64,000 nucleotides of DNA. It comes from Elusimicrobiota bacterium. GTDB taxonomy: Bacteria > Elusimicrobiota > Elusimicrobia > UBA1565. The stretch spans positions 1 to 64,000 of the forward strand of contig JBDREN010000222.1 of assembly GCA_043819795.1 (NCBI GenBank), read 5' to 3'. The position numbers are program-made. Of the stretch, positions 37,101-64,000 are shown in pieces (the first letter of the stretch is position 1; each line of letters starts with the position of its first letter).

Positions 37101-40100
37101 CGAGACGCGCGTCGCGGACAGGACTCGGGATGGATAGCAAGCCTACCAAAGAGGACTCCCTGCGGTACTTCGCGGGGTTGCTGGAGAGGAACGAGGAGCA
37201 CGCGCGGGCGCACGGCGCGTCGTACGGCGCGCTCAAGAGCGGCCAGCGGCCCAAGGTCGTGATCGCCTTCTGCTCCGACTCGCGGCTGCAGACCTGCATC
37301 TTCGGCGACAGCCTGGACTTGGTAAACAACCTTTTCGTCGGCCGGGATATCGGCAACACGTATTCGGACAGCGAGGGCGCGGTGGACTACGCCCTCCGGC
37401 ACCTGGGCGTCCCGGTGCTGTTCATCATGGGGCATACGGGGTGCGGCGCGGCCGAGGCGGCGCGCGGCGATTATGCTGGCGAGACCGAGGCGATCCGCGC
37501 GCGGCTGGGCAGGCTGAAGACCGGCGAAGACGAGGCGCACGATCCGGAGGCGAACGTGGACGCCCAGGTCGGGCTCGCCCTGCGGCGATATCCGGAGAAG
37601 GTGTCGAGCGGCGATCTGGTCGTCATCGGGGGGGTCTTCGACCTCGTGGGCCATTATGGGGGTCTGCCGGGCAAGGTCTACCTGACCAACCTCAACGGGG
37701 CGACCGGCGTCGGACGGATCAAGGAGGGGCTTTCCCGCTGCGGGGCCTTCCCGGACGGGCTGCTGGACGCGACCGTCAGAAGACTTCCTTGAAAGTACCC
37801 GCGTCTTAACGGGCTCTGGTTGACATCCGCCGCTCGATAGAATTATGATACGGGCGCCCGCGAGCGCGGGCGCGAGCCGGACAATCCATTTTTTCTCAGA
37901 AACCGCCGGAGCAAGGAGACGCTGAATGGGCTCAGGACGAACGATCGACGCCGACGTGGGTTTCATCCGATTCCTGAAGAGGTCCGGGGGCGCTGACGTC
38001 AAGAAGTGCTTCCAGTGCGCGACATGCTCGGCGGTATGCAACCTTTCCCCCGCCGAAAAGCCCTTCCCCAGAAAAGAGATGCTTCTCGCGGGGTGGGGGC
38101 AGGCGGAGAAGCTGGCCAAGGACCCCGATATCTGGCTGTGCCATCAGTGCAACGATTGCTCGACCTACTGCCCGCGCGGCGCGAAGCCGGGCGACGTGCT
38201 GGCCGCGATCCGCTCCTACGTTTTCCAGCATTTCGCGTTCCCTTCCTTTATGGGGAAGGCTTTGGCGAGCCCGAAGGCCCTTCCGTGGCTTATCCTGGCG
38301 CCGATGATCATCATCGGGCTTCTTCTCCTCGGCCGCAAGCCCGATTTCACGCAGGGGCAGGTCATCTACGACCACTTCATAAGCGTGCATTGGCTGGAGC
38401 CCCTCTTCATAGGCGGCAACATCCTCGTGTTCTTCTGCGCCTTCATGGGGCTCTGGCGCTTCTGGAACGGTCTGGAGTCGCCGTCCGCGAAGGCCGAGGT
38501 GGGGTTCGTGAAAGGAGCCATCGAGGCGGTCAAGGATATCCTGACCCACGCCAACTTCTTTGAATGCGACGAGAACAAGTCCCGCGCGTACGCGCACCTG
38601 CTCGTCTTCTTCGGCTTCTGCGGCGCGGCGATGACCGCCGGCATGGGCGCCATGGCGCTCAAGGTCCTCGGGATCGAATCCCCCTATACGTTCGACCATC
38701 CCATGGTCTTCGTCAGGCTGATCAAGTGGATAGGGAACCTGTCGGCGATCGCGGGCATCGCGGGGACGATCTGGCTCCTGGTCCGACGCTTCACCGACCC
38801 TGAGAACGTCGGCGCCAACGGCTACCAGGACTGGCTCTTCCTCATCGTGATCTTCCTCGCCTTCATCACGGGCTTCCTGACCCAGGTCGTGCGGATGACC
38901 GGCGCGGACATCGCCTTCCTGGTGTATTACATCCACCTCGTGGTCGTCTTTTTCCTCTTGTGGTACGCCCCCTACTCGAAGTTCGCTCACATGTTCTATC
39001 GGAGCCTCGCCTTCGTCCACGCGCGCAGCGCCGGGCGCGGGAAGAAGGAGAGGCCGTAACGGGCCGTCCGCGGCGATCGGACGGATCCCCCCAGGGAGAA
39101 GGCAATGACTAATGATGAGAAGCGCGATTCGTTGACCGCCGACGTGCTGGTCGTGGGCGGCGGGATCGCCGGCATGACCGCGGCGATCGAGCTCACCGAG
39201 GTGGGCAAGCGGGTCATCCTCGTTGAGCGGAGCCCCTCGCTGGGCGGACGGGTCGTGGCGTCCAACCAGTACTTCCCCAAGCTGTGCCCGCCGACCTGCG
39301 GGATGGAGATCAATCTGAAGAGGATAAGGGCGAACCCTCTCATCACCGTCCTCACCCTTGCCGAGGTGGAGAGCATCACGGGATCGCGGGGCGCCTACGA
39401 GGCCCTGGTCAGGCTCGATCCGCGCTACGTCAACGAGAAGTGCACCGGCTGCGGCGACTGCGCCAAGGCCTGTGAGATCGAGCGCCCCAACGACCTCAAC
39501 TTCGGGCTCGACAAAACGAAGGCCGCGTACCTGCCGCACCTGATGGCCTATCCCTTCCGGTACGTCATAGACCCCGCCTTCGTCGCGGACGAGGGGATCA
39601 AGAAGTGCGCCGAGGCCTGCAAGTACGGAGCCGTCGACCTCGACATGCAGCCCCGGACCGTCGCGGTCAAGGCCGGCGCCGTCGTGTGGGCGACGGGCTG
39701 GAGGCCGTATGACGCCCGCAAGCTCGACCGGCTCGGCTTCGGCAAGTACGCCAACGTCGTCACTAACGTGATCATGGAGCGGCTGGCGTCGCAGAACGGC
39801 CCGACCGGCGGGAAGATAGCGAGGCCGTCGGACCAGCAGGGCGTCAAGAAGATCGGGTTCGTGCAGTGCGCGGGGTCCCGCGACGAGAACCACCTCCCCT
39901 ATTGCTCGGCGGTCTGCTGCCTGGCTTCGATGAAGCAGGCCACCTACGTCCGCGCGCAGTACCCGGACGCGGAGATCCACATGTTCTACATCGACGTCCG
40001 CGCGCCGGGCCGGATGGAGGACTTCTACACGAAGGCGCAGGAGGACAAGAAGCTGTTCTTCCACCGGGGGAAGGTCGGGACGATCACCGAGGTCCCCGAG

Positions 40101-61100: not shown

Positions 61101-64000
61101 CAGCACATCTGGGGGTCCTGGTTGTACGCCTTTTTGGTGTCCTTGTTGAGGACCATCAAGTCGTTGGGGCAAATGTGCTGGCACGCGGTCTTGTCCAGCG
61201 CCTTGCACCCGTCGCACTTGTCCGTAATCACATAACTCGGCATTAGAACTTCCTCCTTACCTTTTATGTTCCTAATTCTTTCTCCACGGTACCGTGCATG
61301 CCCCTGGCGGGACGGCCGGTACGGCTTTCGTCATTCCGTCGGCGGAAAGCCACGCTCACTTCTGTGCGGCGGCGCCGGTCGCATGACCGTGCATCTTGAC
61401 CTCGACCTTCTCCGTCAAGCCGGCATAGTAGGCGCGCAGGATCTCAAGCACCTCGGGCCGGCTGAACTCCTTGGGAACGTCCCCGCCCTCGGAGAGGGAC
61501 TTGCGGAGAGCCGTTCCGCTCAAGAACAGCCGGTCCTTCTTGTCGTGGGGGCAGGTCTTCATGGAGGCCATCCCGCCGCACGCGTAGCACCAGAACGTCC
61601 AGTCGATGGGCAGCATCTTGCACAGCAGGGCGCCGTCCCACAGGTTGTGGTAGGCATCCTGGGCGTCGAACGGGCCGTAGTAGTTGCCCACGCCCGCGTG
61701 GTCGCGCCCGATGATCATGTGCGTGCAGCCGAAGTTCTGGCGGAACACGCCGTGCAGCAGGCCCTCGCGCGGTCCGGCGTAGCGCATGTCGAGAGGATAG
61801 CCGCCGGTGATGACCCGGTTCTTGTCGAAATAGTTCTCGACCAGAGTATTGATGCACTTGACCCTGACGTCGGCCGGGATGTCGCCGGGCTTGAGCCCGC
61901 CGACCAGCTGGTGGATGTAGATCCCATCGCTGACCTCGGTGGCGATCTTCGCGAGGTACTCGTGCGAGCGGTGCATCGGGTTGCGCAGCTGCAGGGCGGC
62001 GATCGTCTTCCAGCCCTTCTCCTCGAACATCTTGCGGCTGTCGGACGGGCGCTGGTAGAGGCCCTGGAACTTCTCGGGGAAGTAGCTCTCCGAGAGGACC
62101 TGGACGGTGCCGGCGATGTTGAACTCTTTCTGGGCCATCACCATCTTCACGCCGGGGTGCTCCTTGTCGTTCGTCGTGAAGACGTTCTTGCACTCGAAGT
62201 CCTTGTCGATCTTGTAGGACTCGGTGACCTTCATGATGGCCATCGTCTCGTTGGTCTCGTCGGACACCAGCGCGATCTCGGTCCCCGCCGCGATCTGCTC
62301 GTCGTGGGACATGGTGATCGGGATCGGCCAGAAGACGCCGTTGGTCAACTTCATTCCTTCGCACACGCTCTTCCAATCGTCGTGGCCCATAAAGCCGTCG
62401 AGGGGCGTGAACCCGCCGATGCCCAGCATGATGAGGTCACCGGTCTCGCGAGACGTGATGACGACCTTTTTGAGCGTCTCGGCCTTCTTTAGAGCCTCTT
62501 CCCGCTGATTTCCTTCCAGGAGGAGGACTTTGAGCGTATCACTGCCGTGAGGGGAGATCAATGTCGATTTAGGCATCTTACCTTCCTTAGTTACGAGTCT
62601 TTGCGACCCGACGATGGGACCCTGGAGACGGATTCCGGCGAGGGGTTGCCCGGTCGTTTACGTTCACATAGATTTAATCAATTCCCCGGCCTCCGGGAAT
62701 TGATTAAGATCAATAAAGTTCGTTGACTCAGATCAATAGGGGGAAACGCCTATATGGGCGGGACGGCTTCGCCGAAAATCGCGCGGCACCCCGGAGGCCG
62801 GCTTGTTTTTCTGGGGCGGTTTATTGGTATTCTGGCCAAGCCGCCTTTGCTCGTGGCGGCCGCGCGCAAAGGCGGTCTCGGATCGTCCGCTCTCGTCCGC
62901 TCTCGGATAGTACACGAACCCGAGAAATGATAAGATTCCCCCGGTTTTTAGTGAGCGCTTCCGTCGTATGAACCGGGGAAACAATACCCTCATACGCGTC
63001 TTCCCTTTCGTGGGCTGGTTCAAGGGCTACACCCTGTCCCATCTCCGCGCCGATTTCATCTCCGGGATCACCGTGGCGCTGGTGCTCATCCCCCAGTCCA
63101 TGGCCTACGCCCAGCTGGCCGGATTGCCCGCCTACTACGGCCTTTTCGCGGCCTTCCTGCCGCCCATGATCGCGTCCCTCTTCGGCTCCAGCCGCCAGCT
63201 CGCCACCGGCCCGGTGGCCGTGGTCTCCCTGATGACCGCGACCGCCTTGGAGCCTTTCGCCACAGCCGGCGGCGAATCCTTCATCGCCTACGCCATGCTC
63301 TTGGCGCTCTTGGTCGGGGCCTTCCAGTTCAGCCTGGGGGTCCTGCGGCTCGGACTGGTGGTGAACTTCCTCTCCCATCCGGTCGTCAACGGCTTCACCA
63401 ACGCCGCTGCCCTTATCATCGCCTCATCGCAGCTTTCGAAGCTCTTCGGCGTGTACGTCGACAAGGCGGAGCATCATTACGAGACCGTGATCAACGTCGT
63501 GAAGGCGGCCTGGGATTACACCCATTGGCCCACCCTGGCGATCGCGATCCTCGCCTTCGTGATCCTGGTGGGCCTCAAGCGGCTCAATCCCCGGATTCCC
63601 AACGTGCTGGTGGTGGTGGTCATCACCACCGTCTTGTCATGGACGATAGGGTTCGAGAAGAACCACAAGGCGCCGGTCGAGGCCATCGAATCCACGGAGG
63701 TGAGGGAGACCATCAAGGAGTTTGACACGTCCCTGGTGGACTACGAAAAGCTGAGCGAGGAACGAGTGGGATTGGTGGCGAGGACCAAGAAGGCGGAGAA
63801 GAAGCTCGGACCGCTTTCCGCGGAGGTCATGACCCTCCATCACGAGCGGAATCTCCTCAACCTCCGGATCACGGAGCTGAAGGAGACCATCCGGGTCGAC
63901 CGGTCCAAGCTGCGGGCGCTCCGGTTCCACGCGGCGCAAGAGCCGGGCGGAGGACTGATGTTCTATCTCCCGGGCCTCGTCCCGGAGGGAATGCGGCGCG

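Follow-up and report, generated by a model that had tools for sequence, protein, structure and literature searches.

Elusimicrobiota have been known chiefly for fermentation and gut symbiosis. The stretch of DNA analyzed in this study (the window, 64,000 nucleotides of contig C222 from an Elusimicrobiota genome) carries genes for dissimilatory sulfate reduction, and the question is whether the host respires sulfate and whether these genes are its own. Based on genes from a metagenome-assembled genome (MAG), we consider it quite probable that the organism respires sulfate anaerobically, by a laterally acquired pathway of the DsrABD/DsrL-2C version.

Gene content of the island

All genes named in the survey's finding, from qmoCAB to the sulfate permease, were located at the positions given there as intact, full-length open reading frames, most of them with scores above the NCBIfam cut-offs (Table 1). 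The gene list had missed dsrT, and the proposed span of 37926–65151 holds for the core only: with the accessory modules, the left edge lies at about 25.9 kb. For dsrB, dsrC, dsrD, dsrL, and dsrT, pN (0.08–0.30) was lower than pS (0.44–0.61) in the comparison with the relative G072.

Table 1. Features of the island on contig C222, with model scores versus cut-offs
Feature	Position	Strand	Remarks
Accessory module 1: HTH_17/MerR-like Cys-rich regulator, macro-domain protein, HmcE/TmcC-like membrane protein, HmcF/TmcB-like Fe-S protein–response regulator fusion, tandem DsrC-like protein	25938–30439	+	gene order shared with G430; G072 has the first four genes
Second HTH_17/MerR-like Cys-rich regulator	30456–31235	-	divergent
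Accessory module 2: third regulator, DsrC-like, DsrM-like, DsrK-like	31640–34996	+	conserved in G430, 62–74%
Sensor histidine kinase, DVU0259-like response regulator, carbonic anhydrase-like protein	35156–37792	+
Sigma-70-like site, qmoCAB entry	37820–37849
qmoC	37926–39059	+	NCBIfam QmoC 398 vs 300
qmoA	39105–40379	+	HdrA models only, below cut-off
qmoB	40384–42624	+	HdrA models only, below cut-off; FlpD/MvhD domain
Sigma-70-like site, dsrAB entry	42785–42813
dsrA	42916–44124	+	NCBIfam 586 vs 393; bacterial reductive type by sequence
dsrB	44171–45259	+	NCBIfam 503 vs 342; bacterial reductive type by sequence
dsrD (putative), 81 aa	45276–45521	+	divergent; winged helix (model)
dsrN	45632–47032	+	CobB family; sirohaem amidase by position
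dsrL type 2 (by sequence)	47078–48751	+	PRK12771 574 vs 516; YRR residues 295–297; N- and C-terminal Fe-S Cys motifs
dsrC	48799–49116	+	DsrC family 117 vs 54
dsrT	49234–49767	+	RsbRD_N domain; directly before dsrM
dsrMKJOP block	49793–54739	+
dsrM	start 49793	+	NCBIfam 531 vs 300
dsrK	start 50788	+	NCBIfam 733 vs 400
dsrJ	start 52397	+	167 vs 100; 3 CxxCH
dsrO	start 52780	+	291 vs 200
dsrP	53579–54739	+	461 vs 350
Sirohaem synthesis: CysG N-terminal dehydrogenase/chelatase, then CobA-HemD fusion (start 55468)	54827–57039	+
OsmC-like protein	57081–57473	+	also near cluster in G072, G430, G530
Small Cys4 protein (weak Ogr-like zinc finger) and CxxCxxCC protein	57597–58779	-	conserved companions downstream of aprA
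aprA	58878–60746	-	NCBIfam 901 vs 642
aprB	60788–61243	-	NCBIfam 199 vs 136
sat	61356–62576	-	NCBIfam 490 vs 387
SulP sulfate permease, 727 aa	62968–64000 in window, ends at contig position 65151	+	456 vs 380 on full frame

All five subunits of DsrMKJOP are present, DsrK with a CCG motif and DsrJ as a trihaem protein. The DsrC of the core cluster carries both C-terminal cysteines of a true sulfur carrier (CX10C; C93 and C104). Neither accessory DsrC-like protein shows this pattern: the tandem protein of module 1 lacks the pair, and the one in module 2 kept only the last cysteine. At 366 bits, the DsrK-like protein of module 2 stays under the DsrK cut-off (400).

A divergent DsrD

The 81-residue protein had been described as lying at the place of dsrD without matching any DsrD family. 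The lack of a match stands (none to Pfam DsrD, and 3 matches among 58 homologues, best E 0.032), but position, fold, and predicted binding fit DsrD. Its frame begins 17 bp after dsrB, and among 80 related loci a homologue was found in 72, directly behind dsrB in 71. AF2 folds the protein as a winged helix (pLDDT 91.8), and this model aligned to DsrD 1UCR with Z 7.9 and rmsd 3.3 over 68 residues, at rank 39 among winged-helix folds, a fold that is not specific. The motif YWSSGSTT, described for DsrD of Desulfobacterota, is absent from the protein, the wing reading YTYFGGS. Binding to DsrAB was predicted with a score of 0.85, compared to 0.01 for the best control; 116 of 157 solved pairs attained this mark, as did 2 of 215 mismatched pairs. 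The complex was folded from custom alignments of DsrD and a single AB pair without DsrC; the runs agreed in at least 87% of contacts, with a partner pLDDT of at least 86. In these models the protein behaves as a divergent DsrD and a predicted DsrAB binder, and the interface is open to direct testing. Pfam and NCBIfam miss this type of DsrD, so genomes of this kind would wrongly be counted as dsrD-free under automated rules.

DsrAB, DsrL, and the direction of the pathway

By its sequence, DsrAB is of the bacterial reductive type. DsrA scored 544 bits against DsrA from A. fulgidus and 536 bits against that from D. vulgaris, and only 308 tblastn bits (41% identity) against phage rDsrA. DsrAB clustered with sequences from Zixibacteria, Ignavibacteria, and Acidobacteria in a tree that contained no oxidative sequence. 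Residues R72, R90, R160, K201, and K203 of DsrA align to R83, R101, R172, K213, and K215 of D. vulgaris, which we take to be sulfite ligands. The gene previously listed as an NAD(P)-binding oxidoreductase is present and can now be assigned to DsrL-2 of the NADPH type, judging from the YRR motif (common to 58 of 61 DsrL sequences), the Fe-S Cys motifs of the N- and C-terminal ferredoxin domains, and its location in a dsr operon that also holds dsrD and a reductive dsrAB. It groups with Zixibacteria-labelled DsrL in a tree built without the published 2C reference sequences.

No DsrE was detected by TIGR03012 in five genomes (including the host, G072, and G430), and PF02635 gave no DsrE-family match in the host (90% complete) or G072. 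According to Anantharaman (2018, PMC6018805), sulfate reduction is indicated by aprBA and sat, reductive-type DsrAB, and the absence of dsrEFH. The genome falls under this rule, because no DsrE was found alongside reductive DsrAB and aprBA and sat above their cut-offs. It likewise falls under the DsrL-2C rule of Diao (2023, PMC10591310), since DsrL-2 adjoins reductive dsrABD, the reductive marker combination. With DsrD, reductive DsrAB, type 2 DsrL, and no DsrE match, the predicted sulfate respiration is better supported than the survey had assumed.

Alternatively, the enzymes might disproportionate sulfur or thiosulfate, or they might work in the opposite direction and oxidize sulfide, as they do in Desulfurivibrio alkaliphilus and cable bacteria. 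Gene content cannot separate these lifestyles, as disproportionators and cable bacteria also carry the reductive set (Anantharaman 2018, PMC6018805; Ferreira 2022; Plum-Jensen 2026), and passages of Loffler (2020, PMC7596348) place DsrL-2 in both directions. The host also encodes a bd oxidase, G072 an aa3-type oxidase in addition, and the DsrC-like proteins without a cysteine pair could serve as sulfur carriers. We nevertheless regard this reading as unlikely. Besides the lack of matches to the two DsrE-family models and the marker combination around DsrL-2, both Hmc/Tmc and SulP are present, which are typical of sulfate reducers. Nor does the genome hint at a reductase for thiosulfate, polysulfide, or nitrate, as its sole match to the molybdopterin family (on C202) is a NuoG-like gene.

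Redox complexes and the membrane carrier

A second contig of the genome, C49, encodes HmcA (532, cut-off 400), HmcB, HmcC, TmcC, and TmcD above their cut-offs. Of the Tmc complex named in the survey, TmcB fell short (707, cut-off 735), and no separate TmcA was seen among the C49 frames scanned. We counted 16 CxxCH motifs in HmcA, in agreement with the 16 haems proposed. The sulfhydrogenase-like [NiFe] hydrogenase on C49 is present with four subunits, which score below the equivalog cut-offs. As a feeder of Hmc/Tmc, neither a periplasmic hydrogenase nor a formate dehydrogenase could be clearly identified. The genome further holds the membrane pyrophosphatase HppA, F1F0, Adk, and an HdrA-MvhD/Etf module.

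Sulfate respiration normally relies on a membrane quinone, and the reported lack of a known quinone pathway for DsrMKJOP and Qmo is real and order-wide: none of the order's 101 genomes yielded MqnA/D and none MenD, and MenB (above cut-off) and TIGR00423 (MqnC/E-type) were found in 0 of 5. The gap extends to Dsr-less relatives with oxidases (G182, G431) and is therefore not specific evidence against sulfate respiration. On the premise that the host cannot make quinone, the pathway could serve fermentation as a sink for electrons from NADPH and ferredoxin (DsrL-DsrAB, soluble QmoAB/Hdr) and conserve little energy by way of quinones. DsrL-2 with an NADP-type hydrogenase would form a soluble route, and the HdrA-MvhD/Etf module fits. 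However, QmoC, DsrMKJOP, Hmc/Tmc, and the bd oxidase are intact and conserved across the carriers of the cluster, which implies a membrane carrier, and a MenA-like prenyltransferase (below cut-off; on C178 in this genome) is conserved in all five genomes tested. A fermentative sink is hence very unlikely.

A sulfate-respiring host would most likely use a naphthoquinone whose head group is salvaged and then prenylated by the C178 enzyme, or an unknown lipid carrier. It is conceivable, though we put it forward tentatively, that Elusimicrobia of this order respire both sulfate (Qmo, DsrMKJOP, Hmc/Tmc) and O2 (bd, aa3) via a carrier other than the menaquinone of either known route, built by the MenA-like prenyltransferase and flanking radical-SAM/SPASM enzymes, and that the island moves between orders. 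If true, sulfate reduction in these bacteria would depend on a redox lipid not described before, in a phylum that has no described sulfate reducer. Quinone-dependent complexes in an order without a known quinone route make the identity of the carrier a concrete question.

Host and origin of the island

The contig belongs to this Elusimicrobiota genome. That it is misbinned or chimeric, carrying the island of a Zixibacteria-like organism, is hardly credible: the hosts are all MAGs and the nearest DsrAB outside Elusimicrobia are Zixibacteria/Ignavibacteria-labelled with the same gene order, but the island has a GC of 0.645 (0.47–0.54 in those loci) and the tetranucleotide profile is typical of the genome, the closest named matches of ClpB, which is encoded on the same contig, are Elusimicrobia (72–76%, background 64–67%), the genome's only RNase R lies there as well, genome-specific repeats occur inside the island, five independent bins form one clade, and the dsr contig of G072 runs on into genes syntenic with other contigs of the host. 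C222 and C49 both carry short repeats that recur on many other contigs.

The trait is rare, as the survey held, with dsrA in 5 of 393 genomes of class Elusimicrobia (three families, two orders), but it is not confined to this organism: G072, G430, G528, and G530 share the cluster. G072 has no sat of the island type; a sat at another place in that genome reaches only 46%. The five DsrAB form a single clade (support 100/99) within a Zixibacteria/Ignavibacteria-labelled group, which suggests one import into the class followed by lateral spread. In raw identity, one Zixibacteria locus (85%) equals the values among the five (81–86%). The source was most likely a Zixibacteria/FCB-like pool; within the class, lateral spread is favored, and vertical descent with many losses is the less probable course. 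The GC of the island follows each host (47–67%), making this a clean case of a ~40-kb respiratory module that crosses phyla and adopts the host's base composition.

Proposed pathway

The gene identities in the following scheme are observed, and the fluxes are drawn from known biochemistry. Sulfate would be imported by SulP and converted to APS by Sat, with PPi removed by the membrane pyrophosphatase and AMP recycled by adenylate kinase. AprAB would reduce APS to sulfite with electrons from QmoABC, and DsrAB, activated by DsrD and supplied with NADPH electrons by DsrL-2, would reduce sulfite and load the sulfur onto DsrC. The NADPH could come from the sulfhydrogenase-type hydrogenase, which is plausible, or from organic substrates. 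DsrMKJOP would reduce the sulfur bound to DsrC to sulfide, and F1F0 would make ATP. Hmc/Tmc and the extra DsrMK-like modules may offer more routes into DsrC or the membrane carrier.

Comparison with known systems

The core enzymes are shared with Desulfovibrio/Nitratidesulfovibrio vulgaris and Archaeoglobus fulgidus (Sat-AprAB-QmoABC-DsrABCD-DsrMKJOP, Hmc, Tmc), as is a 16-haem HmcA. In contrast to these canonical systems, the Elusimicrobiota genome has DsrL-2, a DsrD too divergent for Pfam, and the order qmoC-A-B; futalosine genes are absent, and neither TmcA nor a periplasmic hydrogenase was identified.

Within the phylum, Elusimicrobia bacterium UBA10166, as described in passages of Neukirchen (2023, PMC10504309), has an early-branching DsrAB and the gene order N-E-F-H-A-B-C-TM-J-O-P-V-W. 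Its overlap with our cluster consists of dsrAB, C, N, T, M, J, O, and P; the order listed there includes EFH and no dsrK, dsrD, or dsrL, whereas ours combines bacterial reductive DsrAB with D, L, and K, and EFH was not found. The survey had seen novelty for the phylum in the complete set only; going by these passages, with the early-branching, dsrEFH-linked DsrAB of UBA10166, the enzyme type is new as well.

The closest parallels are the dsrABD-N-L2-C-T-MKJOP clusters of Zixibacteria, Ignavibacteria/Kapabacteria, and Acidobacteriota (DsrL-2C; PMC6018805, PMC7596348, PMC10591310), which have the same gene order, and in many Zixibacteria-labelled loci qmoAB lies directly upstream of dsrA, as it does here. 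DsrA/B of these known clusters are 75–87% identical to ours, and the divergent DsrD and the YRR-type DsrL recur. Unlike these clusters, ours has an Elusimicrobiota host from an order without a known quinone pathway, a separate DsrAB clade, and extra accessory modules. The accessible text and supplement of Diao (2023, PMC10591310) do not mention Elusimicrobiota. The cluster type is thus already known in other phyla, and Elusimicrobiota as its host appear to be new in the literature searched. They join the phyla with a complete sulfate-reduction pathway. A host is also gained for a DsrAB clade which, being up to 85% identical to that of Zixibacteria-like bacteria, would otherwise be attributed to them in marker surveys.

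Gene set for probable sulfate respiration

The assembly of the Elusimicrobiota genome under study (G000) comprises 4.99 Mb in 241 contigs, with a completeness of 90.3% and a contamination of 1.14%. On contig C222, whose positions 1-64000 make up the window, QmoC, DsrA, DsrB, the DsrC family protein, DsrMKJOP, AprA, AprB and Sat scored above the NCBIfam cut-offs, as did the full SulP. On a second contig, C49, HmcA, HmcB, HmcC, TmcC and TmcD exceeded theirs, TmcB fell narrowly short (707/735), and a sulfhydrogenase-like hydrogenase is encoded with four subunits. These profile scores confirm the matches listed in the survey's finding for a Qmo subunit, DsrA/B/C, DsrMKJOP, AprAB, Sat, HmcA–C and TmcC/D; the 16-haem HmcA reported there indeed contains 16 CxxCH motifs. 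Of the order's 101 genomes, two encode HmcA, namely G000 and G072. Since the Hmc/Tmc block shares one contig with dsr genes in G072 and G530, two other dsrA carriers, C222 and C49 can be tied into one system.

Coordinates and strands of features on C222 and on related loci
Feature	Contig or locus	Position	Strand
qmoC, qmoA, qmoB, dsrA, dsrB, 81-aa gene, dsrN, 557-aa flavoprotein, dsrC, 177-aa gene, dsrM, K, J, O, P, cysG-N, cobA-hemD, osmC (in order)	C222		+
Two small companions, aprA, aprB, sat; then sulP, divergent, on +	C222		-
Cys-rich regulator 1	C222	25938-26732	
DsrC-like protein, tandem two-domain	C222	29774-30439	+
Cys-rich regulator 2	C222	30456-31235	
Short repeat	C222	31386	
Cys-rich regulator 3	C222	31640-32467	
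Short repeat	C222	57523	
Small Cys4 protein and CxxCxxCC protein	C222	57597-58779	-
K-M-O-P-type redox cassette	C49 (L008)	6768-11940	
Interrupted F1F0 operon	G000:C56 (L177)	3072-5863	
DsrD-type protein and DsrL in one frame	L102, Nitrospinota	11078-13036	+

The survey had left an NAD(P)-binding oxidoreductase unnamed. The gene is present, and we assign its 557-aa product to DsrL by sequence features: it passed PRK12771, carries Fe-S cysteine motifs at both the N- and C-terminus, and has YRR at residue 295. This motif, which 58 of the 61 DsrL rows taken at related loci share, is described in Loffler 2020 (PMC7596348) as the mark of NADP(H)-specific DsrL-2. An RsbRD_N domain and a place upstream of dsrM make the 177-aa protein DsrT as defined in Anantharaman 2018 (PMC6018805).

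The island reaches further left than had been reported, to ~25.9 kb. Encoded here are a two-component system, three HTH regulators rich in Cys, a protein with a macro domain, one HmcE/HmcF-like and one DsrM/DsrK-like pair, and two DsrC-like proteins that do not have the Cys pair; the block is kept in G430, another carrier, and in part in G072. The regulators are paralogous, each combining an HTH_17/MerR-like N-terminus with a Cys-rich central part and an apparently receiver-type C-terminus; two head DsrMK-like modules, one is divergent, and they are conserved in G430. The tandem DsrC-like protein lacks the C-terminal cysteines and is 75% identical to its G430 counterpart. The two small proteins after aprA recur in loci of many other phyla, as unnamed conserved companions of APS reductase. 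The K-M-O-P-type cassette on C49 has an extended NrfD subunit and was absent from those parts of the dsr contigs that were examined in G072, G430 and G530. Promoter-like sites numbered 6 against 2.5 ± 1.8 expected; the terminator scan was at chance level (11 found, 11.0 expected).

Probable reductive direction

DsrA scored 544 bits to A. fulgidus DsrA and 536 to D. vulgaris DsrA, and is 41% identical to phage rDsrA. DsrE was found neither with TIGR03012 in any of the five genomes tested nor with PF02635 in G000 and G072. A reductive-type DsrA combined with no DsrE denotes sulfate reduction under the rule in the consulted sections of Anantharaman 2018, and agrees with the DsrL-2C rule in those of Diao 2023 (PMC10591310). 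The same sections state that genes cannot separate disproportionators from reducers. The gene set that the survey found is real, and its prediction of sulfate respiration stands as the probable reading. Purifying selection was evident in five genes compared between G000 and G072 (pN 0.08–0.30 vs pS 0.44–0.61). No RNA sequencing run was listed as containing this DNA; one DNA run was, with a word share of 0.08.

Supporting genes in G000 include a membrane pyrophosphatase, F1F0, adenylate kinase, PPDK and HdrA-MvhD/Etf. A bd oxidase occurs in G000, G072 and G430; G072 has an aa3-type oxidase, G000 only a weaker COX1-family match and G430 none. On G000:C56, unrelated frames between atpA, atpG and atpD break the F1F0 operon, one of them an ADP-heptose epimerase-like fragment.

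The 81-aa protein

Profile searches matched no DsrD model to the 81-aa protein encoded 3' of dsrB, the same result as the survey had obtained. Pfam DsrD touched only 3 of 58 homologues (best E 0.032), neither phmmer nor profile searches recovered a DsrD from the PDB, and Foldseek returned nothing at E ≤ 0.001. Nevertheless, all 1380 candidates were homologues, and among the 80 dsrB loci nearest to this one, 72 encode such a protein, in 71 immediately 3' of dsrB. Its AlphaFold2 model is a winged helix (pLDDT 91.8). D. vulgaris DsrD (1UCR) aligned with Z 7.9 and rmsd 3.3 over 68 residues, but ranked only 39th among many winged helices, so the fold by itself is not specific for DsrD.

For the complex predicted between this protein, DsrA and DsrB, the score was 0.85; the best control reached 0.01. 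The mark for this score was attained by 116 of the 157 solved pairs, compared with 2 of the 215 mismatched ones, counts that are approximate owing to self-supplied alignments. Contact agreement between runs was at least 87% and partner pLDDT at least 86. The invariant YTYFGGS wing (residues 61–69) is predicted to dock on DsrA 55–67, 155–158 and 195–200, a stretch adjoining the conserved K201/K203 in sequence. We treat this site as a hypothesis, because Ferreira 2022, in the portion available, guessed a DsrD site distant from the substrate pocket, and because the complex was modelled with neither DsrC nor a second AB pair. DsrAB structures have been solved; our literature search gave no paper on a DsrABD structure. 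The 81-aa protein is filed as a divergent DsrD with predicted binding. In a Nitrospinota locus, a DsrD-type protein and DsrL share one 653-aa frame, possibly a fusion or a sequence error.

Host assignment and quinone supply

Misbinning of C222 is very unlikely. All seven 10-kb chunks lie within the 19th–96th percentile of the genome in tetranucleotide similarity; the Zixibacteria-labelled loci tested scored 0.16–0.53 vs 0.96–0.99. For the ClpB encoded on C222, the three named among the best six matches are Elusimicrobia (72–76%; background 64–67%). RNase R, whose sole genome copy lies on C222, matched 8 of 16 family members, at 53–59% identity. The short repeats inside the island are common to 7–9 other contigs.

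The suggestion that no known quinone pathway serves the complexes held throughout the order. MqnA/D and MenD were each found in 0 of 101 genomes, with controls detected; among five genomes, none had MenB above cut-off or the MqnC/E-type family. G530, outside the order, showed one weak, partial MqnA/D-family match. The single UbiA-family gene of G000 is MenA-like, under the cut-off and flanked by two radical-SAM/SPASM genes (C178, L109). Such a gene with at least one adjoining radical-SAM gene also occurs in G072 (C3, L112), G430 (C32, L110) and the Dsr-free relative G182 (C172, L113). Quinone-type oxidases are retained in relatives lacking Dsr as well, so the gap spans the lineage and is not specific to the sulfate pathway. 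Salvage of a naphthoquinone precursor would be the plainer explanation; a carrier of a new kind instead of menaquinone would be the bold one. The accessible text of a 2025 quinone survey (bioRxiv 10.1101/2025.09.17.676790) names the phylum in a figure legend only.

Distribution and origin

DsrA was detected in 2 of 401 genomes of a phylum sample; within the order, 3 of 101 genomes had dsrB above cut-off. Across the class, 5 of 393 genomes carry dsrA: G000 and G072 of one family, G430 of another, and G528 and G530 of another order. The order dsrABDNLCTMKJOP-cysG is the same in G072, G430 and G530, with qmoCAB nearby. G528 has a short dsr contig (dsrABDN) and sat-aprBA elsewhere in its genome (85–89%); G072 has no island-type sat. 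Island GC tracks the host across the five carriers (0.645, 0.60, 0.67, 0.54, 0.47).

In the DsrAB tree (IQ-TREE; 38 rows selected from 75 available), the five Elusimicrobia form one clade (100/99) within an 18-row clade (100/98) whose remaining rows are Zixibacteria- and Ignavibacteria-labelled, plus one unlabelled. The available Elusimicrobia rows also group in FastTree trees of DsrL, DsrK, AprA and QmoB (91–100). From trees and distances, we interpret this as a single old import out of the Zixibacteria/FCB pool, probably followed by lateral spread within the class. Vertical descent with many losses is given lower weight, since RpoB does not unite the three carriers of the order in one clade and DsrAB distances stay flat as host rank rises: G000 differs from G072 by 0.19 and from G530, of another order, by 0.21, the RpoB distance between G000 and G072 being 0.32. 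Only one of four genomes of the G430 genus has dsrB.

The transfer could be linked to no vehicle, as no DsrA relatives were found in the plasmids or viral contigs searched, C222 holds no tRNA, and no integrase was seen among the frames scanned. 'Excisionase-family' matches were rejected as mobility evidence, being HTH_17/MerR-like domains on the Cys-rich regulators.

Two further Elusimicrobia genomes carry aprBA of a different type at ~50% identity (G298:C50, L158, with sat; G340:C8, L159, with qmoAB). With that aprBA type and no dsrA match in genome searches, they were rejected as clade members. PEP-synthase-like proteins, kinases, response regulators and a DASS transporter are encoded on separate G000 contigs (C24, L175; C114, L176); in G430 and G072, genes of this type adjoin the dsr region or fall inside it, and they likely belong to the same acquired module.

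Comparison with known systems

'Elusimicrob' is absent from the main text, as available, of Diao 2023, Klier 2024 and Anantharaman 2018, and from the supplements of Diao 2023, Klier 2024 and Plum-Jensen 2026 as far as searchable. Other papers mentioning the phylum describe, in their accessible parts, no Dsr-based sulfate reducer in it; one says that its genome lacks the pathway. Although no earlier mention was found in searchable text, figures, supplements or subscription papers could hold one, e.g. among 3568 reductive-dsrAB genomes. Plum-Jensen 2026 describes a DsrEFH type II. The system type is already known; apparently new are the lineage that hosts it, the clade formed across the class and the absence of a known quinone pathway. 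The survey had regarded only the complete set as new, a view we reject because the published Elusimicrobia DsrAB is of a different type. In the available passages of Neukirchen 2023 (PMC10504309), one Elusimicrobia assembly carries an early-branching DsrAB linked to an EFH-containing cluster, whereas the DsrAB on C222 is of another type.
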